NCBI GenBank assembly: GCA_963719715.1
Contig: CAVRDD010000054.1
Span: 7,383-71,382, forward strand
Length of the DNA stretch: 64,000 nt
Source: an uncultured beta proteobacterium
Lineage (GTDB): Bacteria > Pseudomonadota > Gammaproteobacteria > Burkholderiales > JAEUMW01
Direction: 5' to 3'
The notes under the pieces are model-generated. The model saw nothing but the letters and a program-made list of their open reading frames with translations, searched no databases and was not told the DNA's origin. Both the position numbers and the translations under genes were made by a program. Positions 5,909 through 39,249 of this stretch are shown piece after piece. Numbering within the stretch: the first letter of the stretch is position 1; the number at the start of each line of letters is the position of its first letter.

Positions 5909-7378
5909 GTGTCCCTCTCGCGCACGCTCAAGTTCTTCATCGGCGCCGTCCTGCTTCTGGCGGCGATCGTGGCCGCCGTGGCCGTCGGCTTCGCCGCGCA
6001 GGCGTGGTGGCGGCACCCTGACCTCGATCCCTGGCATACGGTCCGGCTCGTCAACGAATTCAAGGCAGGCAGCAAGGCACCGCGGACGTTCGCGGAATAC
6101 ATTGCGCAGGAAGATCGTCTGTTCGCGGAGCTGCGGCAGAAGGTCTACGCATCGTCTGCGCGCGCCGAGCCAAGTGAGCTCGAACGCTATAGCACTGGCA
6201 CGCTCGCAGCACGCATCGCGCTCGACACTTCGGGCAACCGCACGCACGAGCTTGGGCACGCGGCGCCGCGCGGTGCGGCGGTCATGCTGCACGGGCTCTC
6301 GGATGCGCCGTACTCGCTGGAGACTGTCGGCCGGTTGCTGCACGAGCGCGGCTTCCATGTCGTATGGCTGCGGTTGCCGGGGCACGGCACGATTCCCGGC
6401 GCACTGCGCGACGTCGACTGGGAGGACTGGATGGCGGCTACGTCGCTGGCGCTGCGACATGCGGCAGAGCAGGCGCCCGGCAAGCCGCTGTATGTCGCCG
6501 GCTATTCCACCGGCGCGCCGCTTGCGCTGCTGCACGTGCTGCGCGCCATGGACGATCCGTCGCTCGTGATGCCGACGCGGCTCCTGCTGTTCTCGCCAGC
6601 GATCGGTGTGTCGCGCTTCGCAGTGATGACCAACATCGCCGCGCTGCTCGCGCCCGTGCCCGGGCTCGAGAAGGCCGCGTGGCTCGACGTGCTGCCCGAG
6701 TACGATCCCTACAAGTACAACTCGTTTCCGGTCAACGCCGCGAACCAGATCTATGGCCTGACGCGCGCGCTCGAAGCAGGGCTTGCGCGGGCGCATGCTC
6801 GTGGCACGCTCGACCGCGTGCCAACGGTCACGGCCTTCCAGTCGCTCGTCGACTCGACGGTACTGGCGGCGGACCTCGCGACACGGCTCTTCAAGCGGCT
6901 GCCGGCGCAGAAGGGACACGAGCTTGTGGTGTTCGACGTCAATCGCCGGGAGCTCCTGGCGAGCCTGATCGCGCCCGGCCCCAAGCGCGCGTTCGAACGC
7001 ATCGCGGCGGCCCCTGCGCTGCCGTTCCGTCTTACCGTGGTCGGCAACGCGAGCCGTGAGAGCGAGGAAGTCGTCGAGTGGATACGCGAGCCGGGCAGTC
7101 GCGAGGCCGTCCCGAACCCGACCGGCCTCGCCTGGCCCGGCAGGGTCTTCTCGCTCGGCCATCTCGCCATACCCACGCCGATCGACGACCCCATGTACGG
7201 GCTCACGCCGCGCAGCGCCCCCGACGGGCTCGCGATTCCGCTCGGGCGCGGCGCACCGAGCGGCGAGGCGGGCGCACTCGTCATTCCGCTCGGGCAATTC
7301 GCACGCCTGCGCAGCAATCCGTTCTTCCCGGTGATTGCAGAGCGGATTGAGGCAGCGGTAAAGGCGGACGCGCGATAG
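5909..7378 (+). CDS. membrane-anchored alpha/beta hydrolase
   Basis: N-terminal TM helix (FFIGAVLLLAAIVAAVAVGFAA), nucleophile elbow GYSTGA, and an HGLSDAPYS region. GTG start. Confidence 0.75.
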   Translation: MSLSRTLKFFIGAVLLLAAIVAAVAVGFAAQAWWRHPDLDPWHTVRLVNEFKAGSKAPRTFAEYIAQEDRLFAELRQKVYASSARAEPSELERYSTGTLAARIALDTSGNRTHELGHAAPRGAAVMLHGLSDAPYSLETVGRLLHERGFHVVWLRLPGHGTIPGALRDVDWEDWMAATSLALRHAAEQAPGKPLYVAGYSTGAPLALLHVLRAMDDPSLVMPTRLLLFSPAIGVSRFAVMTNIAALLAPVPGLEKAAWLDVLPEYDPYKYNSFPVNAANQIYGLTRALEAGLARAHARGTLDRVPTVTAFQSLVDSTVLAADLATRLFKRLPAQKGHELVVFDVNRRELLASLIAPGPKRAFERIAAAPALPFRLTVVGNASRESEEVVEWIREPGSREAVPNPTGLAWPGRVFSLGHLAIPTPIDDPMYGLTPRSAPDGLAIPLGRGAPSGEAGALVIPLGQFARLRSNPFFPVIAERIEAAVKADAR

Positions 7379-7384
7379 GCAGAA

Positions 7385-7760
7385 CCAACCCTGTGTCGGC
7401 GACGACTGGAGTCAAGTCGTCGAGCAGACGGAGTGTGCACATTACTCGACGCAGCACCGCTACGGTGCCAGTCGGCGGTCCTGGCCATGCAAGAGAGACG
7501 GGCGCCTCGCGATTACGAATAGCAGGGCCGAGAGCGCTTGGTCTTGCGCCGCAGCAGCGACCTGAAGGTCGACAGAGTGTGACCTCGGGCTCACACGATC
7601 TGGCTGAGTGCCGTTTGCCGCAGGACAAGATAAAGCGGTGTACCCAATAGACATACGCCTGCTCGGCGCGGTAGCTATAATGCTTGTAGCGAATGGCGTG
7701 GCGCAGTTGCTCGAGCAGCCGGGGTTTGGGTTCGGGATCGGCGGTGCGGAAGTCAGACAT
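7385..7760 (-). pseudogene. 5' remnant of an integron-integrase-like tyrosine recombinase (frameshifted, C-terminal catalytic half missing)
   Basis: The minus-strand translation PRLLEQLRHAIRYKHYSYRAEQAYVYWVHRFILSCGKRH closely parallels the IntI1 N-terminus as I recall it ([37 protein letters not shown]). A second frame gives VAAAAQDQALSALLF (compare IntI STHRQALAALLF). Similarity ends at the hydrolase gene boundary. Confidence 0.6.
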
Positions 7761-7849
7761 AGCGTTCCTTGACGGCCTGACGCTTATGCTGACAGTATTC
7801 AAGATACGTCGGTGATTACAAGCGCCGAACTTCGGATCGAAGATTCGGT

Positions 7850-7867
7850 GACGCAATTAATTGCGTC
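7850..7867. promoter_or_regulatory. perfect 18-bp palindrome GACGCAATTAATTGCGTC, 46 nt upstream of the OLD-family gene
   Basis: Read directly from the sequence. It lies in an AT-rich leader between the integrase remnant and the ATG at 7913. Candidate operator; function unproven. Confidence 0.35.
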
Positions 7868-7912
7868 GTTTTCGGACGTATTACATCACGTTAGCCTTCA
7901 CGGAAAGCAGTC

Positions 7913-9610
7913 ATGCGTCTTGTATCGTTCTCAGTCACTAATTTTCGCAGCATCACTGACGCTCACAAGATACCAATCGGTGATTCGACCGTTCTCCTGG
8001 GGCGCAATAACGAAGGCAAGTCAAATGTCCTACGCGCTCTGAACATCGCGATGAAGGCGTTGACCACACACGCGACGGAAGAGACCTACTTTTTCCGAGA
8101 TCCGCGAGATTCTCAAGCCTATTCCTGGCGTCGCGATTTCCCCATTTCTCTCCAGTCGCGAACAAGCGGCCTAGAGTCAATCTTTCGCTTGGAGTTCGAA
8201 CTCACTGACCACGAGACGGACGAATTTCGCGAAACGATTAAGAGTAACCTGAACGGCAACTTGCCGATCGAGGGCAAATTCGGCCGCACAGGCAGGGTAG
8301 ACATCAACGTGCGCAAGCAGGGCCATGGCGGCCCTGCCCTTTCGGCCAAGTCAGGGAAGATTGCGAAGTACGTTGCCGAGCACATTCAATTTATCTACAT
8401 CCCCGCCGTGCGTACGGAGGACGAGGCGATATCTGTGGTTCAAGAGATGCTCTCAACGGAACTCGCTCAGCTAGAGACGGACGCAGAGTACATAGCTGCA
8501 CTGCAGAAGATTGCAGATTTGCAGCAACCAGTGCTGGACAAAGTGTCTGAGTCAATTCGCAAGTCGCTGACACAGTTCCTGCCTGGTATTAGAGGTGTCA
8601 CGGTAAGAGTTCCATCATCGGCACGACGTGTAGCGCTTCGTAATCAGTGTCAAATCGAAATTGACGATGGTTCTCGGACGCTGCTCGAGTACAAGGGCGA
8701 CGGAGTAAAGAGTCTCGCTGCGCTTGGACTTCTAAAAAACAAAGGCGTTGCCGAAGGCGCATCCATTGTCGCCATCGAGGAGCCGGAATCACACCTGCAC
8801 CCAGGTGCGATGCACAGCCTGAGAGAGGTGATCGATACCCTTACCGCCAACAACCAAGTCGTGCTGACTACACACTGCCCGCTGTTCGTTGACCGAACCA
8901 CGATCGATCGAAACATCATCATTGACAGGAATACTGCGAAGCCTGCAAAAGACATCTCTTCGATCCGGTCGCTGCTCGGAGTTCGCGCGTCCGACAATCT
9001 TGTAAATGCAAGTCATGTTTTGGTCGTTGAAGGCGACGAGGACATCATTGCGCTCACAGCCTTCCTTCCTCATCTAAGCCCTACCATTGCCAAGGCGCTA
9101 AAGCAGTTCCAGTTGGTGCTTGAACAAATCGGTGGCGCCGGAAACCTCTCGTACAAGCTGTCAACCCTCGCAGATGCCCTTTGCGTTACGCATGTTTTGC
9201 TCGACAACGACGAGGCGGGCAAGAAGGCCTATGAAAAAGCAGTGGGCGAAGGCATGCTGCGCATGGCGGACACTACCTTCGTGAACTGCAAGGGCATGCC
9301 CGCTTCTGAGCTTGAAGACACCTTTGACAGTGGCATCTACAGCGCAGGGATTCTTGACTCCTTTGGCGTTGACATTGCTGATGCAGCGTTTCGAGGCAAC
9401 GCGAAGTGGTCGGACCGAATCAAGGCCTGCTTTGAGAAGCAAGGTAAGCCTTGGGGCGATGCAACCAAAGCTCAAGTTAAGGCCGTCGTTGCTCGGGAAG
9501 TTGCCAAGCGGCCTAGCGATGCCTTGAGTCCACACAAGCGCTCCGCTATGGACGCCCTTGTGTCTGCGCTGGAGCGAAAACTGCAGACAAAGGGAGCGCG
9601 TGCGACGTGA
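7913..9610 (+). CDS. OLD-family ATP-dependent endonuclease (ABC-like ATPase + Toprim)
   Basis: Walker A GRNNEGKSN; Walker B/D-loop IVAIEEPESHLHP; Toprim motifs VLVVEGDEDIIAL and LLDNDEAGKKAY. 565 aa. Local GC is visibly lower than the flanks. Confidence 0.85.
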   Translation: MRLVSFSVTNFRSITDAHKIPIGDSTVLLGRNNEGKSNVLRALNIAMKALTTHATEETYFFRDPRDSQAYSWRRDFPISLQSRTSGLESIFRLEFELTDHETDEFRETIKSNLNGNLPIEGKFGRTGRVDINVRKQGHGGPALSAKSGKIAKYVAEHIQFIYIPAVRTEDEAISVVQEMLSTELAQLETDAEYIAALQKIADLQQPVLDKVSESIRKSLTQFLPGIRGVTVRVPSSARRVALRNQCQIEIDDGSRTLLEYKGDGVKSLAALGLLKNKGVAEGASIVAIEEPESHLHPGAMHSLREVIDTLTANNQVVLTTHCPLFVDRTTIDRNIIIDRNTAKPAKDISSIRSLLGVRASDNLVNASHVLVVEGDEDIIALTAFLPHLSPTIAKALKQFQLVLEQIGGAGNLSYKLSTLADALCVTHVLLDNDEAGKKAYEKAVGEGMLRMADTTFVNCKGMPASELEDTFDSGIYSAGILDSFGVDIADAAFRGNAKWSDRIKACFEKQGKPWGDATKAQVKAVVAREVAKRPSDALSPHKRSAMDALVSALERKLQTKGARAT

Positions 9611-9674
9611 AGCCTCTCTCTCAAGAAACACCTCCCAGGTGACTGGTTTTGAGCAATGTTTTCAAGCGGGTCGT

Positions 9675-10005
9675 TCAGTTGGCGACGAGTTTCATACCCA
9701 ACTTTTCGGCGCGCAGGGCGAGTTGGCGCAGGACGCGTTGGCGGTAGCGCTCTTCGTAGTAGTGCTGACCTTGATCGGTGTATTCCTCGCCCTTGGTGAG
9801 CATCGTGTCGATCAGCCGCGCCAGTTTGTGCTCGGCAGCGGTGACGGCCTTGAGTTTGTCCATGTGTGAGCACATGCGCCGGAAGTACGCGCCGAGCGCC
9901 GACTGGCTCGAACGCAGCGCCGCGGCGGCCAGTCGCAGGGCTTGCGCGGCGCGGTTGGCGCAGCGCTTGGTCTTGCCGCACATGAGCTTGCCGCCGGTGA
10001 TCGAG
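9675..10005 (-). mobile_element. IS110-family transposase 3' fragment (C-terminal ~110 codons only)
   Basis: Minus-strand translation ...GKTKRCANRAAQALRLAAAALRSSQSALGAYFRRM...EERYRQRVLRQLALRAEKLGMKLVAN*. The N-terminal catalytic half is absent. Confidence 0.7.
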
Positions 10006-10042
10006 CCTCACAGATCGTATCCCATGTGATACATTCACTCGC

Positions 10043-10339
10043 GTGATCGAAGTTCGCCAGACACCCGAATACGAGAAGTGGTTCGCGTCGTTGAAGGATC
10101 GGACAGCACGCGTCCGCATAGACATCCGAATCCGACGCCTATCGCTCGGGAACGCCGGCGTCGTCGAGCCAGTTGGCGAAGGTGTATCGGAACTGAAGAT
10201 TGACCACGGCCCGGGCTACCGGGTGTACTTCTTTCAGCACGGCAACCGCTATCTGCTGCTGCTCGTAGGCGGAGATAAGTCCACTCAATCGCGCGACATC
10301 AAGAAGGCGAAGGAACTGGCGCGCAAGTATGCGGAGTAA
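10043..10339 (+). CDS. type II toxin, RelE/ParE superfamily ('addiction module killer' type)
   Basis: 98 aa, GTG start. MIEVRQTPEYEKWFASLKD...RIRRLSLGNAG...GPGYRVYF...LLLVGGDKSTQSRDIKKAKEL. The toxin-first order with the following HTH gene is typical of HigBA-like modules. Confidence 0.85.
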   Translation: MIEVRQTPEYEKWFASLKDRTARVRIDIRIRRLSLGNAGVVEPVGEGVSELKIDHGPGYRVYFFQHGNRYLLLLVGGDKSTQSRDIKKAKELARKYAE

Positions 10340-10343
10340 AGAA

Positions 10344-10670
10344 ATGGCCAAGGCAAATACTCGTATCTGGGATCCTGCGGAACATCTTCAGTCTGATGAA
10401 GACATGGCAGCGTACCTCGAGGCAGCGCTCGAAGAAGGTGACGCATCGCTCTTCGCGGCAGCGCTCGGAGACATCGCACGTGCCAAGGGCATGTCGCAAC
10501 TCGCGCGCGAGACCGGCCTTGGAAGGGAGAGCCTCTACAAGGCCCTATCTCCTTCCGGAAACCCAGAGTTTGCAACTATTCTGCGCGTCGTCGGCGCCCT
10601 TGGTCTGCAACTACACGCAACCACTGCCAGCGTCAAAAGTGCAGGCTCTCAAGAAACACTTCGGGAGTGA
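10344..10670 (+). CDS. HigA-like HTH antitoxin ('addiction module antidote')
   Basis: MAKANTRIWDPAEHLQSDEDMAAYLEAALEEGD...ARAKGMSQLARETGLGRESLYKALS.GNPEFATILRVVGALG. ATG 10344 is preceded by GGAG. An alternative ATG at 10329 overlaps the toxin stop. Confidence 0.85.
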   Translation: MAKANTRIWDPAEHLQSDEDMAAYLEAALEEGDASLFAAALGDIARAKGMSQLARETGLGRESLYKALSPSGNPEFATILRVVGALGLQLHATTASVKSAGSQETLRE

Positions 10671-10688
10671 TTGATCCGTGATGAGGTT

Positions 10689-10830
10689 TCAGGCTGTCTG
10701 TTCGATGGCGACGAACTTCATGCCGAGTTGCTGTGCGCGGCGGGACAGGTTGAGCAAGACGCGCTGGCGATAGCGTTGCTCGTAGTAGTCCTAGCCCTGG
10801 TCGGTGCATTCCTCGCCTTGGTGAGCTGCC
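10689..10830 (-). mobile_element. second, more decayed IS110-family transposase 3' remnant
   Basis: Aligns by eye with 9675..9800 (LTK.EE.TDQG*DYYEQRYRQRVLLNLSRRAQQLGMKFVAIEQTA*). It contains an in-frame TAG and a 1-nt gap. Same orientation as the first remnant. Confidence 0.5.
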
Positions 10831-10834
10831 GACG

Positions 10835-11060
10835 CGTTTGTCGAAGTGGTGATCTGGCAAGTTGGAGCCGGTTCCACCCTCGATACATCTTTTCAAGTAC
10901 CGCTTGGCTTACGTGGTCCGACAAGAATGCGTTCTTCGCTACGACAACGAACGCGGAAAGGGTGATCACCGGCACACCGATCGAGTTCCCTTTTGATGCC
11001 GGCATGGCCGTCATCATGCTCACGCCGCTGGCGCGACTCGTGCCTGCCGCCCGCGCATGA
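10835..11060 (+). pseudogene. remnant of a YDNERGKGDHRH-motif protein (recalled as DUF6516/TumE-like toxin family), N-terminally truncated and frameshifted
   Basis: One frame reads PSIHLFKYRLAYVVRQECVLRYDNERGKGDHRH. The upstream part (VVIWQV) and downstream part (TPIEFPFD...) are in other frames. Confidence 0.4.
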
Positions 11061-11425
11061 TGCCGAAGCGAAACTCTGCTCCCCTCCTGATGGCCATGGT
11101 CGTCGGCGCACTGCTCTGGATTCTCGCCTCGGTTCTCGGTGGCAGACGCGAGCCCTGGGACAGCGCCGCTTACTGGGGCTTCGCCTATCCCGCAGCCATA
11201 TTTGTCGCGGGGTGCATCGGCTTCTTCTTTCCTGACCGGCCCTGGCGCTGGGCGCTCGCCTTGTTCGGGGCGCAATTCGTCGCCATGTGCATCCTGAATG
11301 GCGATCTCGGCAACCTCTGGCCTCTGGGGCTCGTGCTTTTTGCCATCCTCGCAACGCCGGCGGTATTCGTCGCGACCGTCGCTTCCCGACTGAGCAGCCG
11401 CTCGCGCCCGGGCGGCGTCTCCTAG
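11057..11425 (+). CDS. small integral membrane protein, unknown function
   Basis: 122 aa with about 4 predicted hydrophobic helices (LLMAMVVGALLWILASVL, AIFVAGCIGFFF, LALFGAQFVAMCIL, LGLVLFAILATPAVFVATV). Confidence 0.6.
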   Translation: MMPKRNSAPLLMAMVVGALLWILASVLGGRREPWDSAAYWGFAYPAAIFVAGCIGFFFPDRPWRWALALFGAQFVAMCILNGDLGNLWPLGLVLFAILATPAVFVATVASRLSSRSRPGGVS

Positions 11426-19723: not shown

Positions 19724-20890
19724 TCAGACTGCTTTGGCCGCGGCCACTGCCTTCTGGGCGGCGTCCGCCAGATCCTCGGCGACGATGAGCGGCAGTCCGC
19801 TTTCGCGCACGATTTTCTGGCCGGCTTCGACGTTCGTGCCAGCCAGGCGCACCACCACCGGCAGCTTGATGTCGAGCTCGCGGAACGCCTTCACCACGCC
19901 CTCCGCGACCCAGTCGCAGCGGTTGATGCCGGCGAAGATGTTGACCAGCACGGTCTTCACGTTCCTGTCGCCCAGCACCACGGAGAACGCGTTCTTCACG
20001 CGCTCGGCCGAGGCGCCGCCGCCGACGTCGAGAAAGTTGGCAGGGTTGCCACCGGCGAACTTGATCATGTCGAGGGTGGCCATCGCCAGGCCGGCTCCGT
20101 TGATGAGGCAGCCGATGTCGCCATCGAGGCCGACGTAGGAGAGGTCGTATTGCGCCGCCGCCACCTCGCGCGGATCCTCCTGCGACGGGTCGCGCATCGA
20201 GGCGACGTTGCGCTGGCGGAAGAGCGCGTTCTCGTCGAAGGACATCTTGGCGTCGAGTGCGAGAATGCGCTCGTCCTTCGTGATCACCATCGGATTGATC
20301 TCCAGCATGGTGGCGTCGAGCCTGCGGAAGGCGCGATAGGCGCCGAGCATGAGCTTTGTCGCTGCGGCGACCTGCTTGATGTTGAGTCCGAGCCCGAAGG
20401 CGAGCTCGCGCGCCTCGAAGGCCAGCAGCCCGACCGCTGGCTCCACCACCACCTGCAGGATCTTGTCGGGATGCGAGTGGGCGAGCTCCTCGATCTCCAT
20501 GCCGCCCTCGGACGAGGCGATGATGCGGATGCGCTCGGCCTTGCGGTCGAGCACGATGCCGAAGTAGAGCTCGCGCTCGAACGGTTCGGCGACCTCGACG
20601 TAGATGCGCTGCACCGGCTTGCCTTCCGGACCCGTCTGATTGGTGACGAGACGCGAGCCGAGCAGATTCTTCGCCGCCTCGTGCACCTCGTGGTAGGTGC
20701 GGCAGAGCTTGATGCCGCCGGCCTTGCCGCGCGCGCCGGAATGCACCTGCGCCTTCACCGCCCAGTGCCAGCCGCCGAGCTCGGTGGCGCTGTAGACCGC
20801 CTGATCGGGGCTGTACGCAGCCATGCCCCGCGGCACCGGCACGCCGAAGCCCGACAGCAGCTCCTTCGCCTGATACTCGTGAATGTTCAT
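19724..20890 (-). CDS. mtkA: malate--CoA ligase beta subunit / SucC-like
   Basis: The [12 protein letters not shown]... ATP-grasp domain. [23 protein letters not shown] and [17 protein letters not shown] match the Methylobacterium MtkA as I recall it, rather than the SucC motif NIFGGIVRCD. Confidence 0.8.
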
Positions 20891-38814: not shown

Positions 38815-39249
38815 CCCGTCTAACGTGCTCCGCTGCCCATGTGGCAGACGGAGCTTTCGCCTCAAGGCGGAGTTCTTCAAGAAGTTAGCTGCCGCGGACT
38901 CCTGGTCCTTCTTGGCTGCGCCTGTCTCTCGGGTGGCATCCCAATGCCACATCGAGCCCGACTACCCGCCGGCGTACCGCACCGGGCCACTGCGATCAGC
39001 CATGCCATCGCCCGCCATCATCTTCTTCAACTCGTTGCGCGTTTTCCCACTCGCCAGTACTCTCCGCCACGGAAGCGGGGTGTTATAGTCCCTCGCGATG
39101 CTCGAACGGGCGGTACTGCGGCGCTCCGCCTGACCGAGGCTTCACTCGTTTCGTGCGACACTTTGGAGTTCACATCCGTGGGATCACCGCCGCAGTTGGG
39201 CAGCGCTGTCTGTCTCTCTACCTCACGCAACATCGCATGTCGCTTACTT

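Follow-up and report, generated by a model that had tools for sequence, protein, structure and literature searches.

A probable degenerate chromosomal integron with immobilised defence and addiction cassettes and IS110-type remnants in an uncultured beta proteobacterium

Introduction

Can an integron still be recognised once its integrase gene has been reduced to a stump and no intact attC site is left? The question is raised by an island at 7379-11056 of a 64,000-nucleotide stretch of DNA (hereafter the window; positions 7,383 to 71,382 of contig CAVRDD010000054.1, assembly GCA_963719715.1) from an uncultured beta proteobacterium, the source being freshwater-sediment metagenomes. A first interpretation made from the letters alone (the sequence-only reading) had proposed a dead chromosomal integron, made up of a truncated minus-strand integrase gene and, divergent from it, a lower-GC stretch with an OLD nuclease gene, a RelE/ParE-HigA toxin-antitoxin (TA) pair, a TumE-like remnant and the 3' remnants of two IS110-family insertion sequences (IS). 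Family scans and base composition found all of these elements in place, the GC fraction being 0.66-0.72 in the flanks and 0.50-0.57 over 7500-11000. We conclude that the island is very probably a degenerate chromosomal integron carrying immobilised defence and addiction cassettes. The proposal of a dead chromosomal integron is upheld by a stump that groups with integron integrases (IntI), an attI region delimited by a homology break, relatives in which the same cassettes are bounded by attC sites, and IS copies lodged in the R'' boxes of such sites.

Decayed chromosomal integrons and TA-rich arrays have already been described (PMC12444791; PMC11023631), defence genes have been reported as integron cassettes (bioRxiv 10.1101/2024.07.02.601719; PMC12614218), and elements of the IS1111-attC group target attC and may immobilise cassettes (PMC11616780; PMC11187229). 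The phenomena are known, and the locus described here is a clear and extreme case of them; what is distinctive in it is a widely shared OLD cassette and an IS lineage unlike the usual attC-targeting one, most of the residual novelty lying in the latter.

Results

The minus-strand open reading frame (ORF) starting at the ATG at 7760 matched only the integron-integrase models NF011946 and TIGR02249 in our NCBIfam scan (E ~1e-12), the XerC and XerD models giving no match to it, and its sole match in the PDB was 2a3v, the Vibrio integron integrase (VchIntIA/IntI4). Its closest database relative is the IntI fragment P0001 (80% identity over 61 residues, E 4e-34), which is encoded by locus L081 on a metagenome contig of 3.1 kb and scores 213 bits on TIGR02249 versus 52 on XerC. 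Compared with IntI on the one hand and XerC/D or phage integrases on the other, the recombinase groups with IntI, as indicated by the NCBIfam models, PDB 2a3v and the scores of P0001. The identity proposed for an integrase fragment at 7385-7760 is therefore upheld, whereas its extent has to be shortened, since homology can be verified for 7512-7760 only, the interval that we annotate as the intI pseudogene stump. Codons 1-61 (7760-7578) are intact, after which a 17-nt deletion relative to L081 shifts the frame; nucleotide homology with L081 reaches approximately 7512-7518 (blastn match 7518-7894), and the full-length IntI of locus L088, used as a tblastn query, matched 7581-7736 only. The unassigned spacer that separates the detectable stump from the stop codon of the neighbouring hydrolase gene at 7378 (7379-7511) matched neither IntI proteins nor the DNA of L081, and may be either a fully degenerate part of intI or the scar of a deletion.

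DNA alignment, the key observation here, showed that the window and L081 are alike from inside intI through its upstream region, up to and including CACGTTAG, and unrelated beyond this point. The break falls in a core site, GTTAGCC in the window (7890-7896) and GTTAGGC in L081, with the crossover between G7890 and T7891. Because homology stops at the core, as expected of an attI site followed by different first cassettes, the plus-strand region upstream of the stump (7761-7896) is identified as attI. It holds a perfect 18-bp palindrome, GACGCAATTAATTGCGTC, at 7850-7867, which lies 23 nt from the crossover, is conserved in L081 and could be a binding site for IntI or a regulator. Beside the intI start (window 7761-7800) the window lacks 22 nt that are present in L081, CTGATACTGTATACATTATCAA. 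Part of this missing stretch, TACTGTATA, bears what we take to be a resemblance to half a LexA box, and SOS control of intI may have been lost too.

The first unit of the array, the OLD cassette, occupies 7891-9615 on the plus strand and consists of a 22-nt leader, an intact ORF at 7913-9610 (565 aa), whose start is separated by 152 nt from the integrase ATG at 7760, and a final AGCCT, corresponding to the left half of an R'' box, GCCTAAC. The predicted protein matches the Pfam families AAA_15 (8e-25) and AAA_21 (4.5e-19), its best PADLOC model is 'Old' (4e-31), and a Walker A motif (GRNNEGKS) and the sequence EEPESHLHP are visible in its N-terminal ATPase. A structure search matched 6p74, similarity to solved OLD, GajA and PtuA proteins being limited to the ATPase core. 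For the C-terminal part, the Toprim motifs VVEGDED and LDNDEAG were seen by eye alone, and PF20469 (OLD-like_TOPRIM) is precomputed for several close homologues. Database look-up returned no record of the exact protein sequence; homologues of ~80% identity are numerous in Burkholderiales.

Four loci with related OLD units were fetched, with nucleotide identities of 92.9% (L085), 73% (L086/L087) and 70% (L088), and in all four the homology stays within 7884/7896-9614/9615. The unit of L086/L087 and L088 starts with G·TTAGGCTTCAC straight after an attC site (here and below a raised dot marks a junction, crossover or insertion point), and in L085, L086 and L088 it ends in TGAAGCC(T/C)AAC, that is, in the R'' box of a canonical attC. 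L088, from Piscinibacter sp. HJYY11, is a complete integron with a divergent 391-aa IntI (536.6 bits on NF011946, cut-off 435) and four uniform attC sites of 69-72 nt, the OLD unit being its fourth cassette. In L085 (2700-5450) the OLD cassette comes first, beside an 82-aa intI stub and a different attI; it is frameshifted near codon 435 and followed by an attC and a BrnT/BrnA cassette, and we take this locus for a second, independent decayed integron. These shared boundaries identify the OLD unit as a genuine gene cassette. The gene in the window is intact and has evolved under purifying selection, with a ratio of nonsynonymous to synonymous substitution rates (dN/dS) of 0.149 against L085 over 430 codons.

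The TA cassette extends over 10015-10647 on the plus strand. Its RelE/ParE gene (10043-10339) scores 128.7 bits on TIGR02683 (cut-off 62.85) and its HigA-type antitoxin gene (10329-10670) 132.2 bits on TIGR02684 (cut-off 53.7); the two overlap by 11 nt and form a TA pair of the HI1419/HI1420 type, preceded within the cassette by an operator-like inverted repeat, GTATCCCATGTGATAC, at 10017-10032. With the HigA protein as query, 80 loci were found on metagenome contigs, and in most of them homology to the TA unit (40+ metagenome loci) spans 10015 to 10639-10647. The pair of L090 (83% nucleotide identity) sits between 60-nt attC sites, its cassette starting at G·TTAGCC, 28 nt 5' of the conserved TCGTATCCCATGTGATAC, and the TAA stop of its higA lying inside the R'' box GGCTAAC. 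In addition, attC sites were found at the TA unit of L093, L097 and L098 by covariance model, and upstream of the pair in L101 there is a core of attC type, GTTAGTC. The RelE/HigA unit is thus a widespread gene cassette as well. The sequence-only reading had allowed that relatives might carry the OLD and RelE/HigA genes in a non-integron context; in the relatives compared, both units are attC-bounded cassettes, one of them in an integron with a full-length IntI (L088).

The TA cassette of the window has been shortened at its start by 16-28 nt, the TTRRRY boundary among them. Between the end of the preceding IS homology at 10002 and the start of the TA homology at 10015 lie 12 nt of junction filler, GAGCCTCACAGA (10003-10014); the equivalent stretch, the 5' leader of the TA cassette, varies between loci, and the filler is probably a leftover of it. 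At the other end, the native higA sequence ends with GGC at 10646, and the first 23 nt of the following IS remnant add seven codons (SQETLRE) to the gene and provide its new stop at 10668-10670. The original stop codon of higA was part of R'' and was split off by the IS (GGC·TAA), so that HigA now ends in seven foreign residues. The pair is intact and probably self-expressed and, unless the seven-residue tail of HigA matters, would stabilise the locus by addiction.

Each of the two cassettes is followed by a minus-strand IS remnant, A at 9616-10002 and B at 10648-10826; A (from 9620) and B form a direct repeat of 74-79% identity, each with ~60 nt past the stop codon of the transposase gene (tnp). 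After two extra CT dinucleotides (9616-9619), remnant A consists of the sequence CTCAAGAAACAC (9620-9631), a hairpin (9629-9641) and the ~106 C-terminal transposase codons, with the stop at 9675-9677, and is cut off at 10002; its segment 9675-9983 scores 30.1 bits on the IS110 model NF033542, covering model positions 274-342, the C-terminal end only. The exact deletion point, 10002·10003, is marked by a contig of the same sample that matches the window up to 10002 and then runs on as intact tnp. Remnant B repeats CTCAAGAAACAC (10648-10659) and the hairpin (10657-10669), the latter with compensatory changes, and retains ~45 C-terminal codons with an in-frame stop before ending at ~10826. A three-way alignment including an intact plasmid copy identified CTCAAGAAACAC as the right end of the IS. 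The transposase of remnant A is 79% identical to that of L110, 71% to that of a Paraburkholderia sabiae plasmid copy and 50% to that of ISCARN20, and that of remnant B is 54.8% identical to the L110 transposase.

After the OLD gene the window reads TGAAGCCT·(CT)2·CTCAAGAAAC where relatives have GCCTAAC, and after higA it reads GCAGGCT·CTCAAGAAAC where relatives have GGCTAAC, so that the left halves of two R'' boxes are kept, GCCT at 9612-9615 and GGCT at 10644-10647. As these stubs continue into the IS right end where relatives have the full R'', both IS copies entered an R'' box, with tnp antisense to the cassettes. An intact IS sits at the same place of a homologous TA cassette in L110, where the remaining part of the attC is found beyond the IS left end.

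Intact relatives of the IS (L110 and L083) score 296 bits on NF033542 (cut-off 140), and transposases of 447 aa that are almost identical occur extremely often in metagenomes and in Acidovorax, Diaphorobacter and Hydrogenophaga. The ends of the element can be read from a tandem junction in L184 (...TTTCTTGAGAG·CGCAGTAATCGG...). Intact relatives have ~278 nt of non-coding sequence upstream of tnp and ~43 nt downstream, and an inverted repeat, GAAGAAACAC and GTGTTTCTTG, is found at a distance of 38 nt from the left end and 5 nt from the right. Twenty further loci gave the target as GTTAG·GC in tnp orientation, equivalent to GC·CTAAC in cassette orientation, and by analogy with IS110 elements (PMC11208160) the CT is likely the shared core of recombination. 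Eight of these loci carry an attC that the covariance model detects and that runs antisense to tnp, its R'' end touching the left end of the IS; all attC hits beside the IS share this orientation and adjoin that end. About half of the sampled insertions are at GTTAG outside attC, for example in pilQ, in an IS66 element or near a LysR gene. The P. sabiae copy (L083, on plasmid pPs24235_2) was rejected as an attC insertion: it sits in the end of an IS21 element, ~40 nt upstream of the istA start, at CGCC·TCTAC, and was used solely to define the IS ends; its sub-lineage appears to have a different target. At the junction between R'' stub and right end, two extra CTs are present in remnant A and L187 and one in L110, and none in remnant B, L170, L173, L188 and the P. 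sabiae copy; they may be due to slippage or be the trace of repeated recombination at the CT core.

A subgroup of IS110/IS1111 elements known to insert into attC had been invoked for these remnants. Insertion into attC is borne out by the junctions described above; membership in the named IS1111-attC group (ISPst6, ISKpn4 and ISPa21, whose members share at least ~45% identity and leave footprints at the ends of Pseudomonas arrays; Tetu and Holmes 2008 and Post and Hall 2009, as cited in PMC11187229 and PMC11616780) is not. Sequences of ISKpn4 and ISCARN20 were taken from the supplement of PMC11187229, and the transposase of ISKpn4 proved only 21.6% identical to that of L110 over 139 aa (E 1e-5) and 33% identical to the P. 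sabiae copy over 48 aa. Motif searches of the ISFinder set in the same supplement gave ISCARN20, ISAzo22 and ISPpu9 as the nearest named elements. On transposase similarity and the long non-coding region upstream of tnp (criteria of PMC11187229) the IS therefore stands outside the IS1111-attC group, and we assign it, from these comparisons, to an IS110-type lineage (ISCARN20/ISAzo22-like) that shares with that group the habit of targeting attC.

The sequence-only reading had suggested looking for attC sites with a covariance model and had named their absence as a reason to give up the integron. We built such a model (R1) from 12 attC sites of L088, L090 and L082; it recovered attC sites in the non-training loci L093, L098, L086, L097, L110 and L085 with E-values of 1e-12 to 1e-5. 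Taken literally, the outcome goes against the integron, as no attC site is detectable in the window. With the filters off, the best score within the island was 6.7 bits, and neither an attC nor a core was found at its right edge, 10997-11056. Two candidates of a motif-plus-fold scan were discarded: one at 7824-7896, inside attI, and one at 38818-38890 (73 nt, with RYYYAAC...GTTRRRY ends and a moderate fold), neither of which is supported by the covariance model.

Discussion

The comparisons allow a course of events to be proposed for the locus. In the original state, a functional IntI encoded on the minus strand would have captured promoterless cassettes at attI, building up a plus-strand array, and the OLD cassette entered attI at G7890·TTAGCC, where its junction is still seen. 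An IS110-type element whose apparent guide target, GTTAG·GC, corresponds to the R'' box GC[CT]AAC of attC then inserted, independently, into the attC of the OLD cassette and into that of the relE/higA cassette, both times in antisense orientation, as the junctions show. Deletions starting within each IS copy, whose junctions are visible and whose order we infer, removed the left two-thirds of the element along with what was left of the attC, the beginning of the cassette that followed and some number of further cassettes. The gene intI lost its catalytic domain and acquired the 17-nt frameshifting deletion. With no recombinase, no intact attC and only dead IS copies, the locus can no longer rearrange by site-specific recombination, and the cassettes are now fixed chromosomal genes.

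Several observations weigh against this integron origin. The stump lacks the whole catalytic half of the integrase, including the C-terminal insertion specific to IntI, and the window core, GTTAGCC, is one base off the GTTRRRY consensus. Over the whole 64-kb window the best hit of the covariance model reached 13.6 bits (E 0.6, at 20166), no attC, and the motif-plus-fold scan found none in the island, its positive control being eight sites in the Pseudothauera array L082. Formally, a locus lacking an intact attC falls outside what programs usually accept as an integron. The two extra CT dinucleotides at the remnant A junction are unexplained, the C-terminus of the OLD protein scores 18.3 bits on PF20469, short of the cut-off of 23.2, and a simple scan found no consensus sigma-70 promoter for the OLD gene and did not locate Pc. 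On the other hand, the comparative evidence indicates that no attC is detectable because each was split by an IS and then mostly deleted. The evidence for attC is in this respect comparative, resting on the 4-nt R'' stubs. As for expression, by analogy with first-position cassettes in general the OLD gene would be read from a promoter in attI or the intI stump.

It could be argued that the island has no integron history at all, being instead a generic defence and addiction island that lies, with IS debris, next to the remnant of a phage-type or XerC/D-type integrase. The window does hold no intact attC, the catalytic domain of the integrase is gone, and defence islands unrelated to integrons commonly carry OLD and TA genes. 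Such an origin is nonetheless highly unlikely and has been largely refuted already by the stump, which matches integron-integrase models only, by P0001, whose score on the IntI model is four times that on the Xer models, by the arrest of L081 homology at a GTTRRRY core, and by OLD and TA units that share their exact boundaries with attC-flanked cassettes elsewhere. We give no more credence to the idea that the OLD and TA genes were moved by the IS rather than by the integron, the IS110-type element and RelE/HigA (perhaps with OLD) moving as a composite unit and the integrase stump being a bystander. An identical TA cassette does lie at the IS right end in L179-L183, L186 and L110, where the DNA at the left end differs (TctC, COX1, attC). 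These loci are likely chimeric, since they are short-read contigs crossing a repeat; moreover, OLD and TA occur as attC-bounded cassettes without any IS in L085, L086, L088, L090, L093 and L098, the IS ends fixed by the L184 tandem junction leave out the TA genes, and the remnants in the window lack the catalytic part of the transposase.

The scars themselves would be deceptive if the assembly had been mis-joined across a repeated 1.7-kb IS, the real locus having intact IS copies and intact attC sites. The source is a sediment metagenome, a kind of sample in which the IS is highly repeated, and at 10002, 10687 and 10783 contigs of this sample diverge from the window into different surroundings. 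Against this, contigs from four independent sequencing runs (X1 to X4) span every junction: that between the hydrolase gene and the stump (X1 7348-7631), between attI and OLD (X1 7640-8406; X2 7775-8120), between OLD and remnant A (X1 8928-9801), between remnant A and the TA cassette (X1 9772-10214; X4 10000-10150), and those linking the TA cassette, remnant B, the TumE fragment and the next gene (X1 10278-11259; X2 10136-10745; X3 10324-10760). Every junction but that between OLD and remnant A is spanned with 0-1 differences from the window; X1 8928-9801 has 6 differences and one gap. Furthermore, remnants A and B, being only 74-79% alike, cannot both come from the collapse of a single repeat. 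Assembly errors do not account for the junctions, and mis-joining as the source of the whole picture is extremely improbable.

The locus resembles in several respects the sedentary chromosomal integrons with inactivated intI, for instance those of Xanthomonas, which also have a divergent intI, same-strand promoterless cassettes, a GTTRRRY core at attI, TA and defence cargo and a decayed integrase (PMC12444791; PMC4889954). It differs in what a search program could make of it: the CALIN class of IntegronFinder needs attC sites and the In0 class an intact intI, neither of which the window has, and the locus is recognisable only via its relatives. Since standard tools need an intact intI or attC and would miss this locus completely, integron-derived cargo may be under-counted.

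With regard to cargo, class 1 OLD proteins such as P2 Old and the OLD of Thermus scotoductus (6p74) combine an N-terminal ABC-type ATPase, as seen here, with a C-terminal Toprim-like region, for which the protein of the window has a candidate, and likewise have no partner gene. Most likely the OLD gene of the window, which is intact, comes first after attI and is under purifying selection, still encodes a working single-gene ATPase-Toprim nuclease that serves in defence against phages. Known phage-defence cassettes are similar in that a defence-type gene forms the cassette, here at the head of the array, where expression is normally best; in contrast to them, the cassette of the window is a 1.7-kb single-gene OLD unit, which circulates in Burkholderiales chromosomal integrons, is no longer mobilisable in this locus and has a predicted anti-phage role. 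As a circulating Burkholderiales integron cassette, OLD adds to the evidence that integrons bank phage-defence genes, and the locus shows a route by which an OLD gene and an addiction module may reach fixation, in which an IS splits R'' and deletion follows.

Degenerate IS footprints at the ends of cassette arrays were reportedly noted by Tetu and Holmes in 2008. The IS1111-attC group and the IS of the window are alike in entering one end of attC site-specifically and in one orientation, in splitting the site and in leaving degenerate remnants, and splitting of attC by the IS presumably immobilises the cassette. They differ in the length of the transposase (447 aa in the window lineage versus about 345) and in architecture, the seekRNA region of the IS1111-attC group lying downstream of tnp, with short subterminal inverted repeats at 7 bp and 3 bp from its two ends, an IS1111-type layout, whereas the corresponding region of the window lineage lies upstream. 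With a guide seemingly set to the attC core, this IS110-type lineage fits the framework of bridge and seek RNAs. It is tempting to speculate that we are dealing with an undescribed and very abundant lineage that evolved its specificity for GC[CT]AAC, the attC R'' box, independently of the IS1111-attC group and always inserts antisense, an idea to which we attach a chance just short of even. If true, the lineage would be a major agent freezing and eroding the cassette arrays of Burkholderiales, and RNA-guided recombinases would have converged a second time on the site at which integrons recombine.

Some minor features of the island and its surroundings complete the picture. An Rfam scan gave no family above threshold; a twister-sister ribozyme suggested at 9883-9983 on the minus strand (27.2 bits, E 0.0076, gathering score 34) was taken as a chance hit because it is absent from intact relatives of the IS. 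Behind remnant B, a plus-strand fragment of a TumE-family toxin gene lies at 10850-10996, its part at 10862-10996 matching PF20126 with 35.8 bits (E 8.2e-9, cut-off 23.4) over profile positions 17-59 of 81, with stops on both sides. It reads as the dead remnant of a candidate third unit, for which no relative was present among the loci compared. In 80 loci with relatives of the flanking hydrolase (up to 85% identity), the neighbours of that gene include no gene shared with the window and no intI. The right edge of the island falls within 10997-11056, the next gene starting at 11057, and the GC fraction is back at 0.67 at ~11000. The loose-end sequences of contigs diverging from the window at 11026 and 10783 were not found elsewhere in the window, and no empty site could be rebuilt from them. 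One X1 contig shares the window only from 11026 on and carries unrelated DNA before it, so this position may be the true right edge of the island, or the contig may represent an allele without it.

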